32,000 bases of DNA, from NCBI GenBank assembly GCA_963663995.1, contig OY760660.1:1770001-1802000 (forward strand), read 5' to 3'. Of this stretch, positions 7,001 to 28,557 are shown one piece after another (position 1 is the first letter of the stretch; every line of letters starts with the position of its first letter). This DNA is from Erysipelotrichaceae bacterium. GTDB lineage: Bacteria; Bacillota_I; Bacilli_A; Erysipelotrichales; Erysipelotrichaceae. The notes below the pieces were generated by a model. The model did no database searches, was not told where the DNA came from, and saw only the letters and a list, made by a program, of their open reading frames with translations. Position numbers and translations under genes: made by a program.

Positions 7001-8323
7001 ATGGGAAAATACTTTGGAACAGATGGTGTTCGCGGAAAAGCGAATACAGAATTAACAGGTGATATAGCATTTAAAATTGGATTAGCTCTTGGTGAGCGCT
7101 ATATTGGCAAACGAATTAGCGTTGGGATGGATACTCGATTATCTTCGAGTATGCTTAAAAACGCAATTTCAGCTGGTGTATGTGCTGCTGGCGCAAATAT
7201 CTATGATTGTGGGGTAGTACCAACGCCATGTATTGCCTATATCACATCACATGAAGATTTTGTCGCTGGTGTAATGATTTCAGCTTCTCATAATCCTTAC
7301 TATGATAATGGGATAAAAATCTTTAACCATGATGGTGTAAAGATTGATGAAAATACAGAAAGTTTCATAGAAGAAGTTATTGATGGACGTCAAGTTCATT
7401 TGGTTTCTGATGAAAAAATTGGAACGGTGCATGTCTATTCAGATGCATTAATTCGCTATAAACAATATTTGAAAGATATCGTTAATCTAGACCTAAAAGG
7501 TGTGAAGATTGCGATTGATAGTGCGAATGGTTCAGCATCTGTGACAGCCGCATCTATTCTATCTGATCTAGGGGCAGAACTTTTTGCCTTAAATCAAGAA
7601 CCAAATGGAATTAATATTAATACAAATTGTGGGTCAACGCATCCTGAAGAACTACAGAGTTTTACCACTCGCCACAATTGCGCTGTTGGTTTTGCCTTTG
7701 ATGGTGATGCGGATCGTTTAATTGCGGTCGATGAGAATGGTGAATTATTTGATGGGGATAAAACGCTATATGTTTGTGGAATTCACATGAATGAAAAAGG
7801 TGAATTAAAAGAACATACGTTAGTGACTACTGTGATGGCTAACTTAGGTCTGCATAAAGCACTCAATCATAAGAATATTAAAACTGAGCAAACACAAGTT
7901 GGTGATAAATACGTTTATGATCGTATGATTTCCAATGATTTTAGTATTGGTGGAGAACAATCAGGTCATATCATTTTTAAAGAACATATGACCACAGGTG
8001 ATGGGGTTCTTACAGCACTTAAATTATTGGAAGTTATGCAAGATAAGCAACAATCATTAGCTCAACTTTCTAAAGACTTAGTTATTTATCCTCAAGTATT
8101 AAAGAATGTTAGAGTGAATGATAAGAAAAAAGCACTTGAAAACAGTGAGTTAAAAGCACTGATTAATGAAAAAGAAGCAAGTTTAAAAGGTGATGGTAGA
8201 ATCCTAGTTCGTCCAAGTGGAACTGAACCTTTAGTTCGGGTCATGGTTGAAGCAGCTAGTGATGATATTTGTCATCAACTTGTTGATGAAGTTGTAGAGA
8301 AAATACAAGGATTGGGGCTATGA
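7001..8323 (+). CDS. glmM: phosphoglucosamine mutase
   Basis: MGKYFGTDGVRG N-terminus, active-site GVMISASHNPYYDNGIK, DGDADR metal loop and GEQSGH. The start abuts the cdaR stop. Confidence 0.95.
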   Translation: MGKYFGTDGVRGKANTELTGDIAFKIGLALGERYIGKRISVGMDTRLSSSMLKNAISAGVCAAGANIYDCGVVPTPCIAYITSHEDFVAGVMISASHNPYYDNGIKIFNHDGVKIDENTESFIEEVIDGRQVHLVSDEKIGTVHVYSDALIRYKQYLKDIVNLDLKGVKIAIDSANGSASVTAASILSDLGAELFALNQEPNGININTNCGSTHPEELQSFTTRHNCAVGFAFDGDADRLIAVDENGELFDGDKTLYVCGIHMNEKGELKEHTLVTTVMANLGLHKALNHKNIKTEQTQVGDKYVYDRMISNDFSIGGEQSGHIIFKEHMTTGDGVLTALKLLEVMQDKQQSLAQLSKDLVIYPQVLKNVRVNDKKKALENSELKALINEKEASLKGDGRILVRPSGTEPLVRVMVEAASDDICHQLVDEVVEKIQGLGL

Positions 8324-15547: not shown

Positions 15548-15638
15548 GGGGAAGTACTCAAGTGGTTGAAGAGGTGCCCCTGCTAAGGGTATAGGTCGGG
15601 AAACCGGCGCGAGGGTTCAAATCCCTCCTTCCCCGCCA
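15548..15638 (+). tRNA. tRNA-Ser (anticodon GCU), CCA-encoded
   Basis: Folded by hand. Acceptor ggggaag/cttcccc, anticodon loop ctGCTaa, long variable arm, T-arm gaggg-ttcaaat-ccctc, 3' gcca. Confidence 0.9.
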
Positions 15639-15653
15639 GAAATTTTAGCAAAT

Positions 15654-15729
15654 GGTCCAGTGGTGTAGCGGTTAACATGCCTCCCTGTCACGGAGGAGAT
15701 CGCGGGTTCGATTCCCGTCTGGACCGCCA
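15654..15729 (+). tRNA. tRNA-Asp (anticodon GUC), CCA-encoded
   Basis: Acceptor ggtccag/ctggacc, anticodon stem cctcc/ggagg with loop ctGTCac, T-loop ttcgatt. Confidence 0.9.
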
Positions 15730-15732
15730 GTT

Positions 15733-15806
15733 GCAGATGTAGTTCAATGGTAGAACGCGACCTTGCCAAGGTCGACACGGGGGTTCGATTCCCCTCATCC
15801 GCTCCA
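15733..15806 (+). tRNA. tRNA-Gly (anticodon GCC), CCA-encoded
   Basis: Anticodon stem cgacc/ggtcg with loop ttGCCaa, T-loop ttcgatt. Acceptor gcagatg/catccgc carries one A3:C70 mismatch. Confidence 0.85.
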
Positions 15807-17473: not shown

Positions 17474-17637
17474 GATAGAGGCTATATAATTGTGCAAAAT
17501 AGAAAGGCCATAGTGGTCTTTTATTATGTTAGTTACTACACTTCAAAAGGAAGAACTCTATGGCCCAAATCAATCTGAATTTAAATACTGAACAGATTCA
17601 AGATATCATTTCGAATAGACCGAATTATTATACTTGA
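17474..17637 (+). mobile_element. truncated left end of an IS256-family element (IRL plus first ~20 codons of the transposase)
   Basis: gatagaggctatataattgtgcaaaa...aaaggccata closely resembles the IS256 left inverted repeat as I recall it (GATAAAGTCCGTATAATTGTGTAAAAGTAAAAAGGCCATA). The following ATG (17560) encodes MAQINLNLNTEQIQDIIS, similar to the IS256 transposase N-terminus MTQVHFTLKSEEIQSIIE. The frame then stops after 25 codons. Confidence 0.6.
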
Positions 17638-17679
17638 AAAATCACTTAAAAAGATTTATTATATGAATAGATGTTCAAT
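17634..17679 (+). promoter_or_regulatory. candidate cadC-cadA promoter plus ArsR/CadC-type operator
   Basis: TTGAAA (17634-17639), 17 nt, TATTAT (17657-17662). This is followed directly by ATGAATAGATGTTCAAT (17663-17679), which contains the imperfect inverted repeat TGAA-N6-TTCA. Confidence 0.5.
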
Positions 17680-17700
17680 CGTTCATCTAAGGGGATTAAA

Positions 17701-18066
17701 ATGAAAAATTCAGAAACAGTATCTAAATGTGATTGTACGATTATTCATGAAGATGTTGTAAATAATGTTAAGAGCAAAATGCCAGAAGAAGAATCACTGA
17801 TTGATTTAGCTGAGTTGTTTAAAATTTTTGGTGATTCAACACGTGTGAGAATTTTATGGGCTCTAAATGAGTCAGAAATGTGTGTTTGTGATATTTCAGC
17901 TTTATTAAATATGACCCAATCAGCTATTTCTCATCAATTAAGATTGTTAAAACAATCGAATCTTGTGAAGAATAGGAAAGATGGAAAAGTTGTTTATTAT
18001 TCAATCAAAGACAAGCATGTAAAAGATATATTTAGTCAAGGATTCTTGCATATTAGAGAAAAATAA
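17701..18066 (+). CDS. cadC: ArsR/SmtB-family metalloregulator, CadC-like
   Basis: HTH region DSTRVRILWAL...CVCDISALLNMTQSAISHQLRLLK. N-terminal CDC (C10, C12) together with CVC (C61, C63) mimics the CadC four-Cys Cd/Pb/Zn site. Start set at ATG 17701 after SD aagggga; the ORF-track start 17671 is rejected. Confidence 0.85.
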   Translation: MKNSETVSKCDCTIIHEDVVNNVKSKMPEEESLIDLAELFKIFGDSTRVRILWALNESEMCVCDISALLNMTQSAISHQLRLLKQSNLVKNRKDGKVVYYSIKDKHVKDIFSQGFLHIREK

Positions 18067-18079
18067 TGGAGAAAATAAA

Positions 18080-20464
18080 ATGAAAAATAGTAAAGTACTT
18101 CTTGAAGGATTAGATTGCGTGAATTGCGCCAGTAAAATAGAAATATATGTTCAAAAAATTTCAGGACTATCGAATGTTAGTGTTGATTTCGTGAATAGAA
18201 AACTTTCATTTGATTATGATGTGGATGTAAATCTAGTTAGTACAATGGAAAATATTAAAAGATATATTAAATCAATTGAACCTCAAATTAATGTTGTGGA
18301 AATGAAAAGTAATGATGTAATTAGACAAGAAGTTAAACTTGAAGGACTATCATGTGCTAATTGTGCGATCAAAATAGAGAAGAAAATCACGCAGATTGAA
18401 GGTGTAAAATATGCGTCTGTTAATTTTGCGAATCAAAATATAATTGTTGAAATTGACAAAAATATAAATATACATCAATTGAATGAGAAGCTGTTTAGGA
18501 CTTCAAAAACAATTGAGCCAGATATTCGAATGAAATTTCCAAATAACAAAGAGAATACTTTATTAGCGGAAGATGTTAAAAATGATGATTTTGAAAGTGA
18601 TGAAGAAAATGATTTTTCATTAAATAAACAAATATTTAAATTGATTTTTGGTGGAGGATTATTTGCAATAGGATTGATTTTTAAGTTTGAATCAAATATT
18701 GAATTAGCTATATTTCTAATAAGTTATATTATTATTGGTGGCGATATCGTTTTAAAGGCATTAAAAGGTATTCGAAGTGGGCAAGTCTTTAGTGAAAATT
18801 TTTTGATGAGTATTGCAACAATTGGAGCATTCTTCATCGGTGAATATCCAGAAGGTGTTGCAGTTATGTTATTCTACTTGGTTGGTGAATTATTTCAAGA
18901 TATAGCGGTTGATAATTCAAGAAGATCAATAAGAAAGATGATGGATATACGACCTGATTACGCTAACATTAGAATAAACAATGAAATAGTTAAAGTTAAG
19001 CCAGAAAGCGTTAAAATTGGAGATGTTATCATTGTAAATCCTGGTGAAAAAGTACCGCTGGATGGGGTTGTTATTGAAGGCTCATCAATGGTTGATACTG
19101 CTGCATTAACAGGTGAATCGGTACCAAGAGAATTGTTTGTTGATGATCAAGCTATAAGTGGTTTTATAAATCTCAATGGACTTATATTAATCAAAGTAAC
19201 TAAATCTTTTGAAGATTCAACAGTGTCGAAAATACTTGAATTGGTTGAAAATGCGAGCAGTAGAAAAGCGCCAACCGAGAAGTTTATATCAAAGTTTGCA
19301 GCTGTGTATACTCCTATTGTTGTTTTTCTAGCATTAGCATTAGCAATTCTTCCACCATTATTAATACCAAATCAAAGTTTCAGTGAATGGATTTATAGAG
19401 CATTAGTATTTTTAGTTATTTCTTGTCCTTGTGCATTAGTTATATCGATACCACTCGGTTTCTTTGGGGGTATTGGAGGAGCCTCAAGACATGGAATACT
19501 TATTAAAGGTAGTAATTATCTTGAAGCATTAAATAATATTGAGATGGTTATTTTTGATAAAACAGGCACTTTAACCAAAGGCATATTTACTGTTACAAAT
19601 ATTAATTCGGAAGAAGGATTTAACACAGAGAATGTATTAGAACTTGCGGCATATGCGGAAAATCACTCTAATCATCCAATAGCTAAAGCTATTCTGAATA
19701 AATATTCTAAGACAATAGATTTAGATAGAATTAGTGACTATAAAGAAATTTCAGGGTATGGAATAAATTTAAAAATTGATAATATAAATGTTTTTGTTGG
19801 GAATTCGAAATTAATGATAAAAGAGAATATTCCTTTCGAAGAAATTAGTGCGAATGGAAGTATCGTATATGTAGCTAGTGATTCAAAATATATTGGCTAT
19901 ATCGTTGTATCAGATGAAGTCAAAGCAGATTCTAAACAGACAATTGCAGATTTAAAGAAATTAGGGATTATGAGAACCATAATGCTTACTGGCGATAGAA
20001 AAGTAGTTGGCGAAGAAATTGGTAATTATCTTGGCATGGATGAGGTTTATTCTGAGTTGTTGCCGACGGACAAAATTACTAAATTCGAAGAAATCGAAAA
20101 ACAGAAAACAACAAAGGGCAATATTATCTTTGTAGGAGATGGGATTAATGATGCACCAGTACTAGCTCGAGCAAACATTGGTATTGCAATGGGTGGACTT
20201 GGATCTGATGCAGCAATAGAGGCGGCAGATGTTGTAATAATGACAGACGAAACATCTAAAATTATTACAGCGATTAGAGTTGCTAAGAAAACAAGAAAAA
20301 TTGTATTTCAGAATATTGCATTAGCTATGATTGTAAAAGGTATATTTTTAGTATTAGGTTCGTTTGGACTAGCTACCATGTGGGAAGCGGTATTTGCTGA
20401 TACAGGTGTTGCGTTGTTAGCTGTATTCAATGCTTTAAGAGTTATGAATACGCGTGATTTGTAA
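18080..20464 (+). CDS. cadA: Cd/Zn/Pb-type P1B ATPase (CPC motif) with two N-terminal HMA domains
   Basis: Two HMA domains (GLDCVNCASKIE, GLSCANCAIKIE). TM CPC motif (VISCPCALVISIPL), DKTGTLT, HP, GDGINDAP. Lies directly downstream of cadC. Confidence 0.9.
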   Translation: MKNSKVLLEGLDCVNCASKIEIYVQKISGLSNVSVDFVNRKLSFDYDVDVNLVSTMENIKRYIKSIEPQINVVEMKSNDVIRQEVKLEGLSCANCAIKIEKKITQIEGVKYASVNFANQNIIVEIDKNINIHQLNEKLFRTSKTIEPDIRMKFPNNKENTLLAEDVKNDDFESDEENDFSLNKQIFKLIFGGGLFAIGLIFKFESNIELAIFLISYIIIGGDIVLKALKGIRSGQVFSENFLMSIATIGAFFIGEYPEGVAVMLFYLVGELFQDIAVDNSRRSIRKMMDIRPDYANIRINNEIVKVKPESVKIGDVIIVNPGEKVPLDGVVIEGSSMVDTAALTGESVPRELFVDDQAISGFINLNGLILIKVTKSFEDSTVSKILELVENASSRKAPTEKFISKFAAVYTPIVVFLALALAILPPLLIPNQSFSEWIYRALVFLVISCPCALVISIPLGFFGGIGGASRHGILIKGSNYLEALNNIEMVIFDKTGTLTKGIFTVTNINSEEGFNTENVLELAAYAENHSNHPIAKAILNKYSKTIDLDRISDYKEISGYGINLKIDNINVFVGNSKLMIKENIPFEEISANGSIVYVASDSKYIGYIVVSDEVKADSKQTIADLKKLGIMRTIMLTGDRKVVGEEIGNYLGMDEVYSELLPTDKITKFEEIEKQKTTKGNIIFVGDGINDAPVLARANIGIAMGGLGSDAAIEAADVVIMTDETSKIITAIRVAKKTRKIVFQNIALAMIVKGIFLVLGSFGLATMWEAVFADTGVALLAVFNALRVMNTRDL

Positions 20465-20656
20465 GTCATACCAATCTATTGAGTAATAATAGATAGAGTG
20501 TATTAAGAGTCTAGTTGAGTTTAAACATCTGTTTCCTTTTAGTTGAATGATTAAATCTTAAATGCACATACAATGGATTAATTTTCAAAAATGCTTAATT
20601 TGATTATAAATACACAAAATTTTGATATAGTTCATGAATGTGTGCGTATCCTTATA

Positions 20657-20698
20657 AAAACGGAATTATAAATCTAATTGATTTTATAATTCCGTTTT
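20657..20698. terminator. strong bidirectional terminator between cadA and the convergent thioredoxin-like gene
   Basis: aaaacggaattataaa-tctaattgat-tttataattccgtttt forms a 16-bp perfect stem with A/T runs on both sides. Confidence 0.75.
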
Positions 20699-20726
20699 AT
20701 TTACTTAATAATCCAAATAAATGTTC

Positions 20727-21155
20727 TTATTCAAAAATACCAGAATTATTAATTCTTTTAATAAATTTGTCTTCAGTATCTGCTTGTTGAAGGGAAAACT
20801 GATCAAGAATTACTCCGTCTTTTATTACAAATAGTATTGGAAATGAATAAGGAAAAGTTTCATTTTGTTCTAGAAAACTTGTTATAGTTGTCGTTAGAAG
20901 CTCTTGATCTTTTTCTGGGACTTTATCAAATTCTAAATAAAATACATCAAAGTTCTCCTTTTCAATAGAACTCTTAACTACAGAGCGGAATATTTTGCAC
21001 GCTGAACAATACGATAATCCCATATATAGTATAAAGGTATCACTATTTTCCAATTTGTCGTTAACTGTTTTCGTATCTACTTCGATAAATCCAGATGACT
21101 TACAACCTGCAAAAAATAATAAAATACTAAGCATTATAACTATCAATTTTTTCAT
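20727..21155 (-). CDS. thioredoxin-fold lipoprotein (CxxC)
   Basis: Lipobox FFAGC (Cys18). YMGLSYCSACKIF active-site-like CSAC. Size and pattern match exported thioredoxin-like or Bta-like lipoproteins. SD agagga. Confidence 0.7.
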   Translation of the reverse strand: MKKLIVIMLSILLFFAGCKSSGFIEVDTKTVNDKLENSDTFILYMGLSYCSACKIFRSVVKSSIEKENFDVFYLEFDKVPEKDQELLTTTITSFLEQNETFPYSFPILFVIKDGVILDQFSLQQADTEDKFIKRINNSGIFE

Positions 21156-21182
21156 ATTTTCCTCTTTTCTTACTTATATTTA

Positions 21183-21238
21183 TTGACTATAAGTATCATG
21201 TAGAATACTATATTAGTATACATGAATATTTGTTCAAT
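21183..21238. promoter_or_regulatory. divergent promoter region with 28-bp imperfect palindrome and second copy of the cadC-type operator motif
   Basis: Plus strand: TTGACT (21183-21188), 17 nt, TACTAT (21206-21211). Minus strand: TTGAAC (complement of 21232-21237), 16 nt, TAATAT (complement of 21210-21215). Palindrome catgtagaatactatattagtatacatg at 21197-21224. ATGAATATTTGTTCAAT at 21222-21238. Confidence 0.45.
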
Positions 21239-21297
21239 TAAACATATATTATCAAAAATTTAGATTGAAAATAAATAATTAGAAAAGGAAATACATA

Positions 21298-22485
21298 ATG
21301 CGCTTCAAATTCACGATTATTGTTAGTCTATTATTAATTCTATTTGGGTTTACCAATGTGTCAGCCAGTGATAAACAAGTCAACTTATATTACTTCCATG
21401 CGGAAGGATGTCCAACATGTGCACTTGAAACGACATATCTCGAAGAACTTACTTCGAAGGATACGAATCTCGTACTACATAAGTATGAAATCGCATTTGA
21501 TAAAGAAAATCAAAAGCTAAGTAAAGATGTAGGTGAACTCTTAAACCAACCGATTAACTCAACTCCAACCTTAATTATTGGTAGAGAAGTAATAGTAGGA
21601 TTTAAAGAAGGTTCAACTGAAAAGACCATTGAAGAAGCAATCACTTTCGTAAGAGATAACAACGTTCGTGATGTTGTAGGTGAAATGTTAGGCATTGTAG
21701 AACCTGGACAAGGCGTAGATATTATTAATGAAGGATCTAAAGTCAATTTACCATTTTTTGGAGAAGTTGACGCTAAGAGTGTATCATTACCGATATTAGC
21801 AATTGTATTAGGTGGATTAGATGGCTTTAATCCATGTGCAATGTGGGTATTACTCCTCTTAATCAGTATGTTATTCCATCTTGAAGAACAATGGAAAAAA
21901 TGGTTCTTAGGTGGATTATTCCTCCTAACAAGCGCGATTATGTATTTCTTCTTTATGTTGAGTTGGTTAAATATAACGATTCTATTCGGCACATTAGTTT
22001 ATATCCGATGGTTAATTGGAGGTCTGAGTATTGGTGGGGGAATATTTAATATTCGTCGTTATACCCAAATGGAACCAGGATGTGAAATCGTTGATGAATC
22101 GAAACGATTAAAGATTAGAGATCGTTTGAGAGCCATCTATTCACAACCGGTATTCGCGCTTGCGGCTGTTGGGATTGTCGTGCTTGCGGTTTCTGTAAAC
22201 TTAGTTGAATTAATTTGTTCCGCTGGATTACCGGTATTATTTACACAAATCTTAACGTTAAATGATCTTAGTAGTTTTGAATATATGATGTATTTATTCC
22301 TTTATTTAGCGATGTTTATGCTGGACGATATTATCGTGTTTGTGATAGCTATGAAAACTGCAGAACTTACCGGCATCTCTACGAAATACGCACGCAATGC
22401 ACATCTTATTGGGGGGATACTAATGATTCTACTTGGAATCTTTATGATTCTAAAACCCGCTTGGTTGTTGTTAAACTTTCGATAG
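21298..22485 (+). CDS. exported thioredoxin/glutaredoxin-fold domain (CPTC) fused to a DsbD/CcdA-like 6-TM thiol-disulfide transporter core
   Basis: Signal peptide (..TNVSA/SD). YYFHAEGCPTCA plus a cis-Pro-like STPTLIIG. Six predicted TM helices follow, with Cys in TM1 (GFNPCAMW) and TM4 (ELICSAGLP), as in DsbD-superfamily cores. Confidence 0.55.
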   Translation: MRFKFTIIVSLLLILFGFTNVSASDKQVNLYYFHAEGCPTCALETTYLEELTSKDTNLVLHKYEIAFDKENQKLSKDVGELLNQPINSTPTLIIGREVIVGFKEGSTEKTIEEAITFVRDNNVRDVVGEMLGIVEPGQGVDIINEGSKVNLPFFGEVDAKSVSLPILAIVLGGLDGFNPCAMWVLLLLISMLFHLEEQWKKWFLGGLFLLTSAIMYFFFMLSWLNITILFGTLVYIRWLIGGLSIGGGIFNIRRYTQMEPGCEIVDESKRLKIRDRLRAIYSQPVFALAAVGIVVLAVSVNLVELICSAGLPVLFTQILTLNDLSSFEYMMYLFLYLAMFMLDDIIVFVIAMKTAELTGISTKYARNAHLIGGILMILLGIFMILKPAWLLLNFR

Positions 22486-22767
22486 AACATTATAAATCAT
22501 TAATTTAAGTTTTGTAAGTTGCGATGAGTATTATCTACTTCAATGATATTGGTTAAGTATTACTAATTATTTTACCAAGTGATAAACGTAGTACGCATCA
22601 CTGAGTTGAACTACTTTCAAAATACTTACTGGGTCACAGCTGGGTCGCGGATGTCAGTTAATAGTGGTTAATAGTTGTTTTACTTGGGATATTTTCTAAG
22701 ATTTTATGGGATTTTAGTTAGTTTTACTGCGTTATATGAAGTTTCTGAGTTTAATTCTTAAACTCCA

Positions 22768-23077: not shown

Positions 23078-23338
23078 TTACTGTCGCCAACGATAATATT
23101 CGTCATCATTATCTAGACTCATTTCTTCTACTTTTTTCTTAGTATGGATCAAGAAAAACTCAAATTGATAAAGGATCAAAAAATTTTCAACACTCATATG
23201 AAATCTAGTTTGTTCACTATATACCCAGATTTTTTCATCGATAAGAACAAAAAATGATAATGGGGTGGAGATTGTTTTTAAAACTTGACCTTGTTTTAAA
23301 TATTCTATTGAATCATTTATGTTAAATTTGTTTTGCAT
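23078..23338 (-). CDS. hypothetical protein, 86 aa
   Basis: Isolated ORF with no recognisable motif. Coding status is uncertain. Confidence 0.35.
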   Translation of the reverse strand: MQNKFNINDSIEYLKQGQVLKTISTPLSFFVLIDEKIWVYSEQTRFHMSVENFLILYQFEFFLIHTKKKVEEMSLDNDDEYYRWRQ

Positions 23339-23541: not shown

Positions 23542-25719
23542 ATGAATAAAGATAATAATAACAAATCTAGCAAAATGGATCACAGCGAAATGGATCATAG
23601 TAAGATGGATCACAGCGAAATGGACCATAGTCAAATGGATCATAGCGAAATGGACCACAGTCAAATGGATCATAGTAAGATGGATCACAGTCAAATGGAT
23701 CATAGTAAGATGGATCACAGCGAAATGGACCATAGTCAAATGGATCACGGAACCGAAGGACATGAAGGTCATCATGATCATCACATGATGATGGTGAAAG
23801 ATTTCAAAAGACGATTCTTTGTATCGCTTTTCCTTACTGCTCCGATATTACTTTTGTCGCCCATGATTCAGATGTTTATGGGTGTGGAATGGCGATTTAC
23901 TGGAGATAGTTACTTGCTTTTCATTTTATCAACGATACTTTTTATCTATGGTGGTAAACCATTCTTAACTGGAGCTGTTGATGAATTGAAGAAGAAATCA
24001 CCAGCCATGATGACATTGATTGCTTTGGCGATTAGTGTTGCTTATATTTATAGTTCACTTACAGTTTTTGTATTAAAAGGGAGCGACTTCTTTTGGGAAT
24101 TAGCGACTCTAATTACAATTATGTTGTTGGGACATTGGATTGAAATGAAGTCTATTATGGGCGCATCGAAAGCATTAGAAGAACTTGTTAAGTTAATGCC
24201 AGTTATTGCTCATATGATTCATGATAATGGGGATGTTATGGATCATCCTGTTGATTATTTTAAAGAAGGATTCAATGTACTCGTAAAGCCGGGCGAAAAA
24301 ATACCGCTTGATGGTATTATTTATGAAGGGATTTCATCTGTTAATGAATCCATGATGACAGGCGAATCTGTACCCGTTGAAAAAAATCCTGGTGATGAAA
24401 TTATTGGTGGGTCAATCAATGGGGAAGGTGTTCTTAAATTTACAGTTTCAAGAGTAGGTGAAGCAACATTTTTATCTCAAGTTATTAAATTAGTACGAGA
24501 AGCGCAGGCTTCTCGATCCAACACACAACGCCTTGCTGATATCGCAGCCAAGTGGCTGTTCTATATTGCTGTTATTAGTGGAATAACCACATTTACAGTA
24601 TGGATTTTATTAGGCCAAGATTTAAGCTTTGCCATCGAACGCGCGGTTACAGTTGTTATTATTTCCTGTCCGCATGCTTTAGGACTAGCAACACCATTAG
24701 TAACAGCTGTTTCTACGAGCATTGGTGCTAAAAAAGGATTATTGATTAGAAATCGATCAGCATTTGAAGAGGCGCGAAAGCTAAATGCCATTGTTTTTGA
24801 TAAAACTGGAACCTTAACTGAAGGTCAATTTGGGATTACTGATATTGTCTCGACTGGATTAAATGAAAATGAGTTATTATCACTTATTTATTCTGTAGAA
24901 TCAAACTCAGAACATCCTATTGCAAAGGGTTTAGTGAAAGAGGGTAAAAAGCGCGATCTTAAGCTTCAAGATGTAAAGGATTATCAAGCGTTACCTGGAA
25001 AAGGACTTGTTGCAAACGTAGAAGGTCGAGAGATTAGAATTGTTAGCCCAGGTTACATGATCTTGGAAAAAATTGCTTTTGATACGATCAACTATGAAAA
25101 ACTTGCTGCTCAAGGGAAGACAGTTATCTTTGTGCTTGAAGAGAGTAAATTAATTGGGTATGTAGCACTTTCTGATATTATAAGAGACTCGGCTATAGAA
25201 ACAGTAGCTACTTTAAAAACAATGCATATTGAATCCATCATGCTTACTGGAGATAATACAAAAGTTGCGAACTATGTTGGTCAGAAGATTGGTATTGATC
25301 AGATTATTGCTGAAGTACTCCCTCAAGATAAGGCTATGAAGATTAAAGAATTAATTAAATCGGGCAAAAAAGTTGCCATGACAGGTGATGGAATCAACGA
25401 TGCTCCTTCCTTAGCGTTAGCACATCTTGGTATTGCGATTGGTGCTGGTACAGATGTCGCCATTGAAACAGCTGATGTTATTTTAGTTAAAAGCAATCCG
25501 CTAGATGTAGTCAATATTCTTAAACTATCCAAAGCGACATATCGCAAAATGATTCAAAACCTTATTTGGGCAACTGGTTACAATGTCATTGCGCTTCCTT
25601 TGGCCGCTGGTGTCTTGATTAATCAAGGTATCGTAATAAGTCCCGCTATGGGTGCTGTATTTATGTCATTGAGTACAATTATCGTCTCCATAAATGCTCG
25701 ATTACTAAAAATTGATTAG
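23542..25719 (+). CDS. copB: CopB-type copper P1B ATPase (CPH motif) with His-rich repetitive N-terminus
   Basis: N-terminal (MDHSx)x11 followed by HEGHHDHH. TM CPH motif (IISCPHALGLATP), DKTGTLT, SEHP, GDGINDAP. Resembles Enterococcus hirae CopB architecture as I recall it. SD aggag 8 nt upstream. Confidence 0.9.
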   Translation: MNKDNNNKSSKMDHSEMDHSKMDHSEMDHSQMDHSEMDHSQMDHSKMDHSQMDHSKMDHSEMDHSQMDHGTEGHEGHHDHHMMMVKDFKRRFFVSLFLTAPILLLSPMIQMFMGVEWRFTGDSYLLFILSTILFIYGGKPFLTGAVDELKKKSPAMMTLIALAISVAYIYSSLTVFVLKGSDFFWELATLITIMLLGHWIEMKSIMGASKALEELVKLMPVIAHMIHDNGDVMDHPVDYFKEGFNVLVKPGEKIPLDGIIYEGISSVNESMMTGESVPVEKNPGDEIIGGSINGEGVLKFTVSRVGEATFLSQVIKLVREAQASRSNTQRLADIAAKWLFYIAVISGITTFTVWILLGQDLSFAIERAVTVVIISCPHALGLATPLVTAVSTSIGAKKGLLIRNRSAFEEARKLNAIVFDKTGTLTEGQFGITDIVSTGLNENELLSLIYSVESNSEHPIAKGLVKEGKKRDLKLQDVKDYQALPGKGLVANVEGREIRIVSPGYMILEKIAFDTINYEKLAAQGKTVIFVLEESKLIGYVALSDIIRDSAIETVATLKTMHIESIMLTGDNTKVANYVGQKIGIDQIIAEVLPQDKAMKIKELIKSGKKVAMTGDGINDAPSLALAHLGIAIGAGTDVAIETADVILVKSNPLDVVNILKLSKATYRKMIQNLIWATGYNVIALPLAAGVLINQGIVISPAMGAVFMSLSTIIVSINARLLKID
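23575..23751 (+). repeat. 15-bp in-frame tandem repeat, about 11.8 copies (atggatca[ct]ag[ct]nan), encoding MDHS[EKQ]
   Basis: Read directly from the sequence: atggatcacagcgaa atggatcatagtaag atggatcacagcgaa atggaccatagtcaa and so on. Differences between units are mostly synonymous or at the fifth codon. Confidence 0.95.
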
Positions 25720-27646: not shown

Positions 27647-27662
27647 AGATTTAATAAATAAA

Positions 27663-27907
27663 TGCGTTGAAAAGAAATAGTAGTAATATTGAATCCATAA
27701 GAGAGAGATCCAAAAGCTGAAAGTGATCTTTGGAGAATGTAGTATGAATGCGTCTTAGAGCAGCAGTTTCGAAAATGTAGAGACTGACAGGTACGCCTGT
27801 TAAAGCGTTAGGATATGTTTGTATCCGATAGAGATGAACTAATAATATTAGTTTAACAAGAGTGGAACCGCGAAAGACTATCGCCTCTTAGAGGAGAGTC
27901 TTTTTTT
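27663..27907 (+). ncRNA. T-box leader (tRNA-sensing riboswitch), probably Cys-specific, with intrinsic terminator
   Basis: T-box sequence AACAAGAGTGGAACCGCG (27855-27872; consensus AAnnnGGGTGGTACCGCG). Stem III aactaat-aat-attagtt just upstream. AGAGA box at 27700-27704. K-turn-like GCGTTGAAAAG ... TCTTAGAGCA. GAA-UGC-G (27746-27752) sits in the specifier position. Terminator agactatcgcct...aggagagtct plus t7 (27875-27907). Confidence 0.8.
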
Positions 27908-27924: not shown

Positions 27925-28557
27925 ATGAATTCACAAAATTATTTTGATCGTATTGCCCCACAATGGAATACGATGAGACAACAATATTTTAATCAAGATA
28001 TAAGACCAATTATATTTTCAAGAATCGATTTTAGAAATACTTCCATTGCGGACTTAGGGGCTGGTACGGGATATTTAGCGTTAGAGTTGGCTAAGCATGC
28101 GAAAATAGTGTTCGCAATTGATCAGTCTCAAAACATGTTAGATCAAATCAAGGAAAAAGCTCATAATCAGAAGATTGATAATATTTATACATTGGCATCA
28201 GATATTCAATCAATTCCATTCCAATCAAATCAAATTGATATCGTGACAATGAATATGGCACTACATCACATGTTAGAACCAAATTTAATTATCAAAGAAA
28301 TGTATCGATTATTAAATGATGAAGGCATAGTTATAATCAGTGACGTAATGAGCCATAACGGTAAATGGGCAATTGAAGAAATGCATGATGTTTGGCTTGG
28401 GTTTAATAGAGATCAAGTAGAATACTGGCTGAGTGAAAATGGATTTATCGATATCGAATTTATCGAAACTAATTTTCAAGCAATCGCATCTAGTCAAAAT
28501 GGTGAAATTATTAATCCAAATATATTCATTGTGATCGCAAAGAAGGTTAAAAAATGA
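27925..28557 (+). CDS. class I SAM-dependent methyltransferase (UbiG/YrrT-like first gene of the sulfur operon)
   Basis: Motif I IADLGAGTGYLALELA and post-I/II motifs (VFAIDQS, DIVTMNMALHH). SD ggagg. Confidence 0.8.
   Translation: MNSQNYFDRIAPQWNTMRQQYFNQDIRPIIFSRIDFRNTSIADLGAGTGYLALELAKHAKIVFAIDQSQNMLDQIKEKAHNQKIDNIYTLASDIQSIPFQSNQIDIVTMNMALHHMLEPNLIIKEMYRLLNDEGIVIISDVMSHNGKWAIEEMHDVWLGFNRDQVEYWLSENGFIDIEFIETNFQAIASSQNGEIINPNIFIVIAKKVKK

Follow-up and report, generated by a model that had tools for sequence, protein, structure and literature searches.

Does a single metal sensor govern both an efflux pump and a pair of exported redox proteins? The question is raised by a 32-kb stretch of DNA (the window; contig OY760660.1, positions 1,770,001 to 1,802,000) from the 1.95-Mb genome (33% G+C) of an Erysipelotrichaceae bacterium. 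Here, a cadC-cadA operon, encoding a metalloregulator and a P1B ATPase, is followed by two divergent genes for exported CxxC proteins, called pedC-like and grxTM below. A 17-nt motif at the cadC promoter recurs between these two genes, which had led an earlier note on this DNA to predict that the CadC-like repressor controls the pump and both exported proteins. Our comparison of sequences favors this prediction: with a probability of about 0.75, the second copy of the motif would be a functional CadC site, and one CadC repressor would act on two operators of 12-2-12 layout within a mobile metal-resistance cassette.

The two copies were recovered exactly as first described. The 17-mers ATGAATAGATGTTCAAT at 17663-17679 (site 1) and ATGAATATTTGTTCAAT at 21222-21238 (site 2) are identical at 15 of 17 positions, and the inverted repeat TGAA-N6-TTCA reported in both is present at these two sites only in the window. 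The same is true of the more specific core TGAAYA-N2-TRTTCA. Frequent occurrence of the motif in AT-rich DNA, which would have spoken against a regulatory role, was not observed within these 32 kb. The two exact cores compare with an expectation of 0.04 per 32 kb, derived analytically from a first-order Markov model of the window, and with an empirical rate of 0.07-0.10 per 32 kb, obtained from unrelated or background loci, where 974 kb contained two matches. From these rates we calculated a Poisson probability of ~0.002 for two or more exact cores. No further match of at least 14/17 to the site-1 17-mer was found elsewhere in the window, nor did any appear in 60 Markov-simulated windows. The recurrence of the motif is not due to chance.

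At full length, both sites can be written as 12-2-12 repeats. Operator 1 (17658-17683, core 17664-17677) reads ATTATATGAATA-GA-TGTTCAATCGTT and is symmetric at 6/12 positions. An additional conserved TTCA half-site (17682-17685) extends the element to 17658-17685, with no strand assigned, and the pattern TGAAnn-NN-TGyTCA-N4-TTCA is kept 5' of cadC in five related loci (L081, L086, L095, L005 and L118; L numbers denote the loci compared here). Operator 2 (21217-21242, core 21223-21236) reads TATACATGAATA-TT-TGTTCAATTAAA, with 8/12 symmetry, and is located in the 142-bp divergent region separating the pedC-like and grxTM genes. Site 2 is not a plain duplicate of the cadC promoter, as the identity ends within ~20 nt and the distance between operator and -10 differs. 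Rex (TGTGAA-N4-TTCACA) and CRP/FNR-type boxes are unlikely in view of their half-site spacing. A third motif-like site, ATGAATAATCGTACAAT, carries two mismatches and lies at 17732-17748 on the minus strand, inside the cadC coding region and ~70 nt past operator 1; it is also found in L005, L081 and L095. Since it coincides with the conserved CDCT(I/V)IHE codons, it may be explained by coding constraint, and it could still serve as an auxiliary operator.

The core of both sites has documented counterparts. Table 2 of PMC8790569 gives 12-2-12 repeats of the alpha3N and alpha5 groups of ArsR/SmtB regulators. The Anabaena aztA operator, the target of the alpha3N sensor AztR, is TACAATTGAATA-GT-TGTTCAATTGTT, with a core written TGAATA-GT-TGTTCAAT, while the site 5' of nmtA, which was bound by AzuR in electrophoretic mobility shift assays, is AATACCTGAACA-GA-TGTTCAAGTATT (PMC8790569). 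Sites 1 and 2 share their core with both published operators, which bears out the earlier assignment to the ArsR/SmtB type. In the same source, the target of SmtB and AzuR is a metallothionein gene and that of AztR an ATPase gene, and one regulator may serve more than one promoter (PMC8790569).

The regulator expected to bind these operators is encoded directly downstream of site 1. The cadC-like gene (17701-18066, plus strand) specifies a 121-residue winged-helix protein of the HTH_5 type (PF01022, E = 4.1e-18, 65 bits against a cut-off of 22; NF033788, E = 3.8e-30, 103 bits against a cut-off of 55), whose best relatives in the PDB are Listeria Lmo1102, SmtB, CzrA and pI258 CadC. The alpha3N ligands C10-D-C12 and C61-V-C63 align with the cysteines of the Lmo1102 and pI258 CadC region, and the alpha5 ligands D104-K-H106 and H117-I-R-E120 with the DHH...H..E region of SmtB. 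The recognition helix, TQSAISHQLR, contains SAISHQLR where SmtB has SAVSHQLR. Ligands and recognition helix are invariant in five lineages at 64-87% identity (alignment A6). With HTH_5 and all alpha3N and alpha5 ligands in place, the protein is the CadC-type ArsR/SmtB regulator that it had been taken for. Its sensor ligands are CadC-like, while its recognition helix and operator core resemble those of SmtB, CzrA and AztR. The cad operator of pI258 is of the TCAAAT type, which the core found here does not match. The next gene, cadA (18080-20464, plus strand), encodes a Zn/Cd/Pb-type P1B ATPase (TIGR01512, E = 1e-155, 519 bits against a cut-off of 313; PF00122, PF00702) with two N-terminal HMA domains (PF00403 x2) and the CPC motif, seen as SCPCALV in the translation.

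Both operators overlap or abut the best -10/-35 candidates of a consensus scan, with conserved hexamers, although these promoters are predictions only. The predicted cadC-cadA promoter, TTGAAA-17-TATTAT (17634-17662, plus strand), matches the consensus at 10/12 positions and is kept in L081 and partly in L086; the site-1 17-mer begins at 17663, directly after its -10, which ends at 17662. The predicted grxTM promoter, TTGACT-17-TACTAT (21183-21211, plus strand), is followed by the core of site 2, starting 11 nt past the -10, and both its hexamers are common to the window and L086 while the nearby intergenic region diverges. On the opposite strand, a weaker candidate for the pedC-like gene, TGAACA-18-TATAGT (21236-21207), has its -35 inside the core of operator 2 and a spacer of 19 nt in L086. 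By consensus scan, the geometry is as described before, with site 1 after the cadC -10 and site 2 on both divergent predicted promoters. The convergent cadA and pedC-like genes are separated by a predicted bidirectional intrinsic terminator (20657-20698), whose inverted repeat is perfect over 16 nt and has T-runs beside it on each strand; its predicted RNA fold has -18 kcal/mol (z = -6.1). As this terminator would block read-through from cadA, the pedC-like gene needs a controlled promoter of its own.

The same four-gene block is found in relatives, where it is surrounded by different DNA. The block spans ~5 kb (17623-22600, no strand assigned), with cadC and cadA followed by the divergent pedC-like and grxTM genes. 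Compared with L081 and L083, the window shows 95% nucleotide identity over exactly 17623-22600, with the left end just before the cadC -35 and unrelated flanks on both sides. The homology to L086 covers 17632-22478, and there the block is bracketed by two rve transposase genes of 205 codons each in the same orientation (L086:1205-1822 and 7482-8099), an arrangement that resembles a composite transposon. These exact limits and the unrelated flanks indicate that the four genes make up a mobile cassette, inside which two operators would define a regulon. In L086-88, an additional gene for an HMA metallochaperone, of 71 residues in L086, directly follows grxTM. The last ~90 bp at the right end of the cassette (22515-22602) have a second copy, 74% identical, ~1.2 kb downstream in L081/L083 (L081:7188-7284), perhaps left over from an insertion boundary or repeat.

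We distinguished four lineages of the cassette. Lineage 1 comprises the window, L081-84 and L101-104 (96-99%) and keeps both sites, with operator 2 identical in all of these loci. Lineage 2 (L086-88, L098-100 and L105; PedC identity 76-84%) has the same gene order, and both sites are exact where covered, with operator 2 conserved in L086-88, L098, L100 and L105. In lineage 3 (L095-97; PedC 62%, CadA 61%), the order is rearranged, with grxTM divergent from a pedC-cadC-cadA series. One site, TATACATGAACA-TT-TGCTCATGTATA, is an 11/12 palindrome in the divergent intergenic region, and another, TGAATG-AT-TGCTCA-ATCG-TTCA, precedes cadC. In lineage 4 (L005 and the IMG/VR viral contig L118; GrxTM 51-53%), the four genes follow each other on one strand as cadC-cadA-grxTM-pedC, with one operator after a consensus promoter (TGAAAG-GA-TGTTCA-TATA-TTCA in L005, TGAACA-CT-TGTTCA-ATCG-TTCA in L118); within the L005 operon, neither a terminator nor a promoter was found on the plus strand. 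The palindrome is thus kept in all cad-linked divergent pedC/grxTM pairs, in three lineages and two gene orders. Between the window and L086, whose cassettes are ~75% identical in nucleotide sequence, the divergent intergenic region retains a near-invariant block consisting of the -35, the -10 and TAGTATACATGAATATTTGTTCAAnTAAACATA, while both of its ends have diverged.

The single operons of lineage 4 lie at L118:3947-8489 (UViG_3300033565_000056) and L005:3095-7584, on a predicted viral contig and in a related prophage-like region, respectively. The L005 flanks encode what we take, from their translations, to be a ParB-like methyltransferase, a terminase small subunit and HNH proteins. This suggests that these operons are phage-borne Cd/Zn resistance cargo.

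Paralogues outside the cassette provide the counter-test. Housekeeping grxTM genes stand in the context QueT-ThiF-NYN-MurB-HflX-YbjQ-cysteine desulfurase-mini-thioredoxin-GrxTM, and their products are 95% (L001), 90% (L085), 75% (L089-91) and ~68% (L092-93) identical to the window protein. Neither the exact motif nor cadCA was found at the housekeeping loci L001, L085 and L089-94. A version with one mismatch, TGAATAGTAATTCA, occurs at L089:4605-4618, and also in L090 and L091, at the junction of ybjQ and the cysteine desulfurase gene, 5' of the desulfurase-mini-thioredoxin-grxTM series; as it is absent in L001, L085 and L092, it is probably a chance occurrence. In a metagenome scan with the PedC-like alignment, orthologues of at least 62% identity were all cad-linked, divergent to grxTM and accompanied by the motif, while paralogues at 41-49% identity (L106-117) had neither cad or grxTM neighbours nor the motif nearby. 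The predicted co-regulation hence passes a comparative test: the motif is retained across lineages and rearrangements, the genes are fused into one operon in lineage 4, and the motif is absent at unlinked paralogues. The link between Cd/Zn sensing and a thiol-redox module that the earlier note had drawn is supported as a regulon internal to the cassette, but not as a connection to the housekeeping redox genes of the host.

The history of grxTM seems to differ from that of its partner. The cassette protein is 92-97% identical to the product of the housekeeping gene in the L001-like lineage. For the window gene and L001:6001-7188, the identity amounts to 95% of amino acids and 84% of nucleotides, with homology running from 21 bp before the start codon to the stop codon. 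The PedC-like protein of the cassette, on the other hand, is only ~48-50% identical to stand-alone paralogues. This difference suggests that the cassette grxTM was recently captured from, or converted with, a host grxTM. No second grxTM from the contig of the window was found among the best 120 matches, whereas a PedC paralogue (P0134) is encoded on this 1.95-Mb contig.

What, then, would the second operator control? The pedC-like gene (20727-21155, minus strand) encodes a thioredoxin-fold lipoprotein of 142 residues with the lipoprotein signal LLFFAGC (lipobox FAGC) and the active site C50-S-A-C53, which is invariant in 23 homologues (alignment A5). The protein has no Pfam match at E ≤ 0.001 and reaches the PedC/BrcD model TIGR01295 with E = 6e-9 and 35.9 bits; because this score is below the cut-off of 120, we describe it as PedC-like and not as a PedC equivalog. 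Precomputed matches to PF20207 (PedC-like) exist on its homologues and are marked as weak. The grxTM gene (21298-22485, plus strand) encodes 395 residues comprising a signal peptide, an extracytoplasmic thioredoxin-fold domain (CPTC) and a domain of six transmembrane (TM) helices. The products called a thioredoxin pair before are indeed exported CxxC proteins, but that label is better replaced by a PedC-like lipoprotein and a fusion of a thioredoxin fold to a 6-TM domain.

The TM part of GrxTM has no match in Pfam, even at E ≤ 10. In an alignment of 60 sequences, residues C38, C41, C180, C262 and C307 are invariant, the last three within the membrane motifs FNPC180AMW, GC262 and IC307SAGLP. 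An AlphaFold2 model from these 60 sequences (pLDDT 79) has an N-terminal domain matching thioredoxins and six long helices, with FNPC180AMW and IC307SAGLP at helix breaks (176-179 and 308-310); a model from a 13-sequence alignment was unusable, as the pLDDT of its TM domain was below 50. Cysteines modeled at breaks of the first and fourth long helices are consistent with the architecture of DsbD/CcdA, a 3+3 bundle with cysteines in proline motifs. We scored more than 4,700 homologues and examined the neighbourhoods of 75 genome loci. In 54 of the 75, a leaderless thioredoxin gene of ~86-90 codons (MKxxKxxAxWCxxC; PF00085) lies directly 5' of grxTM, often overlapping it (e.g. L001:5751-6011, L042:5709-5978). 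Given this arrangement, the membrane domain may exchange electrons with a cytoplasmic thioredoxin in the manner of DsbD/CcdA.

Loci with the mini-thioredoxin-grxTM unit span Erysipelotrichaceae, other Bacilli and many phyla of the candidate phyla radiation (CPR), and the unit seems to constitute a pathway for thiol electrons across the membrane that has not been described before. The GrxTM family is common in CPR/Patescibacteria, gut Bacilli and Erysipelotrichaceae. Many homologues belong to CPR bacteria, which to our knowledge lack known Dsb systems. Some CPR homologues of 520-570 residues, such as P0164, have their N-terminal thioredoxin-fold domain duplicated in tandem, with two CxxC domains before the TM domain; the duplication in P0164 ruled out reading these long members as GrxTM-PedC fusions of the Rosetta stone kind. 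A tblastn search of plasmids returned no plasmid-borne GrxTM.

Taken together, the PedC-like and GrxTM proteins most likely form an extracytoplasmic thiol pathway. This pathway is probably reductive and DsbD/CcdA-like, the reductive direction being suggested by the mini-thioredoxin gene that precedes grxTM in 54 of the 75 loci. Electrons would then pass from cytoplasmic thioredoxin to the membrane cysteine pair of GrxTM, on to its thioredoxin-fold domain and finally to the PedC-like lipoprotein, which would be the terminal oxidoreductase at the surface. Thiophilic metals attack the free thiols of exported proteins, and the pathway could serve to guard or repair the cysteines of such proteins, perhaps also binding metal transiently. 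Escherichia coli dsbA and dsbB mutants are sensitive to Cd and Zn because these metals bind free thiols, according to PMC7598926, which cites Rensing 1997 and Stafford 1999.

The proposed regulation can be outlined as follows. Without metal, CadC dimers would occupy operator 1, abutting the -10 of the cadCA promoter, and repress it, while CadC on operator 2 would cover about +1 to +25 of the grxTM promoter as well as the -35 and spacer of the opposing pedC promoter. All three transcription units would in this way be repressed together. Binding of Cd(II), Zn(II) or Pb(II) at the alpha3N Cys4 site, the alpha5 site or both would release CadC and jointly induce the efflux ATPase and the two exported CxxC proteins, so that metal stress probably switches on the pump operon and both redox genes. 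CadC binding, the metal response, the redox direction and the substrates are all matters that we infer from sequence.

Several points weigh against this reading. The scan for sites covers 32 kb of the 1.95-Mb genome, and other regulators or further sites are possible. Operator 2 is an imperfect palindrome (8/12) whose right outer arm is degenerate in the window. The promoters are consensus matches only, no commoner in the region than in shuffled sequence, and the call for the pedC-like gene is weak. Part of the conservation reflects shared ancestry and not independent retention, since lineages 1-3 are rather closely related and the four genes move together. With respect to the pathway, the cassette is without a mini-thioredoxin gene, and searches for a relationship to DsbD/CcdA gave no significant link: a GrxTM profile reached CcdA (5vkv) among PDB entries at E = 5.8, which is not significant, hhalign assigned a probability of 0.4% to the comparison with a neighbouring DsbD_2 protein, and a hidden Markov model of the TM part had no match among 1469 neighbourhood open reading frames (ORFs). 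Foldseek matches of the whole model to the PDB were thioredoxin domains or thioredoxin-fusion constructs of G-protein-coupled receptors, leaving the TM domain uninformed. As these tests of membership were negative or uninformative, we suggest that GrxTM works like DsbD/CcdA and not that it belongs to that family. Finally, overexpression of a Cd-induced pair of thiol-disulfide oxidoreductase (TDOR) and CcdA in Bacillus did not raise the minimum inhibitory concentration of Cd (PMC6975044).

CadC control could be real and the pair nevertheless handle the metal itself, with the CxxC lipoprotein and the CPTC domain as a sink or chaperone for the Cd/Zn expelled by CadA, or with the 6-TM domain as a carrier like CadD and others of the LysE superfamily. 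The metallochaperone gene after grxTM in L086-88 fits this idea, as do grxTM homologues beside a CopA-type ATPase (L077), a cation diffusion facilitator (CDF) transporter (L061) and ArsR-Trx_3-ArsP clusters (L014, L016, L042 and L060). One member of the GrxTM family also has a precomputed match to PF11139, presumably a membrane-protein family related to the LysE superfamily. Moreover, ScsC is reported to bind Cu(I) with subpicomolar affinity (PMC8900818). We consider metal handling unlikely, since the coupling of grxTM to a mini-thioredoxin and the invariant cysteines in broken TM helices 1 and 4 point to electron transfer and not to ion transport, and housekeeping copies follow a cysteine desulfurase gene, in surroundings that have nothing to do with metals.

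It is more doubtful still that operator 2 is real but bound mainly by another factor, such as a second ArsR-family protein or a regulator of thiol or redox stress encoded elsewhere, in which case the pair would answer a signal other than Cd/Zn. The visible 32 kb leave room for such a factor, sites 1 and 2 have different outer arms, and operators of ArsR-family paralogues can resemble each other, AztR and AzuR having sites in common (PMC8790569). On the other hand, the cassette moves between genomes with one regulator gene and both sites kept, the pair is placed within the cadC operon in L005 and L118, and the motif is absent at the housekeeping paralogues, which are the expected targets of a host redox regulator. 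It is highly improbable that site 2 resembles site 1 by chance in AT-rich DNA, or is mere promoter sequence (-35 TTGAAC), and binds no repressor. A short motif, an imperfect operator 2 and a genome of 33% G+C would favor such an accident, and from base composition we estimate that the loose TGAA-N6-TTCA should occur about once per 32 kb. Against it stand the low Poisson probability for two exact cores, a core that is conserved while its flanks diverge, the better palindrome that the rearranged L095 lineage has at this position, and the clean separation of cad-linked from unlinked paralogues.

Control of the four genes by CadC thus remains the reading we prefer. More tentatively, and with less than even odds, GrxTM could represent a family of membrane electron transporters, as yet uncharacterised, in which a thioredoxin domain is fused to a TM domain for which Pfam has no model. 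This family may be the chief replacement for DsbD/CcdA in Erysipelotrichaceae, gut Bacilli and many CPR bacteria and would usually be fed by a dedicated mini-thioredoxin. One copy, together with a PedC-like lipoprotein, would have been captured by a transposon- and phage-borne cadCA element and put under direct CadC control. In this way, Cd/Zn efflux would be joined with the protection of thiols outside the cytoplasm or with the sequestration of metal, in what might be an undescribed metal-inducible pathway of envelope protection.

The surroundings of the cassette contain further features. A second P1B ATPase, of the CopA type, is encoded at 23542-25719 (plus strand); it is without an HMA domain and has a His-rich N-terminus of ~12 MDHS[E/K/Q] units, encoded by a tandem array of 15-nt repeats (23572-23748). 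No CadC-type site was found 5' of this gene, and its regulator is not evident. The window also contains a Pfam-less ORF of 86 codons (23078-23338, minus strand), a T-box leader (117 bits; 27658-27891, plus strand) 5' of an ORF at 27925, and a tRNA-Ser/Asp/Gly cluster (15548-15806, plus strand) ~1.8 kb 5' of the left end of the cassette.

The CadC-type regulator described here resembles CadC of pI258 and Listeria, SmtB, CzrA, AztR and AzuR in its HTH_5 fold, N-terminal Cys pair, CVC, DxH...Hx2E and cadC-cadA operon, which is predicted to be autoregulated here. Its operators resemble those of the ArsR/SmtB family in being imperfect 12-2-12 repeats with a TGAAyA-NN-TrTTCA core that overlaps the promoter or transcription start site, here predicted. 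In usual descriptions, the regulons of CadC, CzrA and SmtB comprise a pump, to which a metallothionein or a CDF transporter may be added. In contrast, two divergent genes for exported thioredoxin-fold proteins, and not a gene for a transporter or metallothionein, form the second target predicted here. What would be new is that the CadC regulon takes in, within a mobile cassette, two extracytoplasmic thiol-redox proteins, one of them from an uncharacterised family of membrane proteins. The finding predicts that a cytoplasmic Cd/Zn sensor acts directly, at the operator level, on thiol chemistry outside the cytoplasm; the cassette that packages this link travels between genomes and on phage-like DNA. 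The cassette also offers a simple inducible handle, through metal or deletion of cadC, on a very widespread uncharacterised family of membrane thiol-redox proteins. If the pathway adds to resistance, such cad cassettes would constitute a distinct resistance genotype in Erysipelotrichaceae of the gut and of anaerobic digesters.

A close parallel is found in a Firmicute, Bacillus vietnamensis 151-6, where Cd induces a TDOR-CcdA pair (orf4108-4109) 130-370-fold; cadA, cadC and cadD belong to the same metal-resistance island, and no regulator of the pair has been identified (PMC6975044). There, too, an extracytoplasmic TDOR and a membrane electron transporter are encoded near cad genes, and they are the most strongly Cd-induced genes of their region. 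The Bacillus pair consists of a canonical CcdA of the DsbD family and a ResA-like TDOR, with no operator identified and no defined cassette, whereas the cassette presented here has a Pfam-less, thioredoxin-fused membrane partner and an explicit predicted operator. Our finding suggests a type of regulator for the unexplained induction, by more than 100-fold, of the Bacillus pair.

A Gram-negative analogue is the copper-induced ScsB/ScsC(/ScsD) system of Proteobacteria (PMC10907172, PMC3322552). It is likewise a metal-induced module of envelope thiol oxidoreductases, in which a DsbD-class transporter feeds a thioredoxin-fold partner, either soluble or anchored, and which contributes to metal tolerance. 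It differs in its Gram-negative host, in responding to copper and in being governed by envelope-stress or Cu regulators instead of ArsR/SmtB proteins; in addition, ScsB is a bona fide DsbD homologue, and the system lies outside any efflux-pump cassette. The combination of a CxxC thioredoxin-fold lipoprotein at the surface with a membrane redox partner is also known from Etrx1/2-CcdA1/2 of Streptococcus pneumoniae (PMC3914529) and from PedC/BrcD (PMC4919988). Etrx/CcdA serve MsrAB and the defence against oxidative stress (PMC3914529), and PedC serves disulfide formation in bacteriocins (PMC4919988), but neither system is known to be metal-regulated or linked to cadCA.

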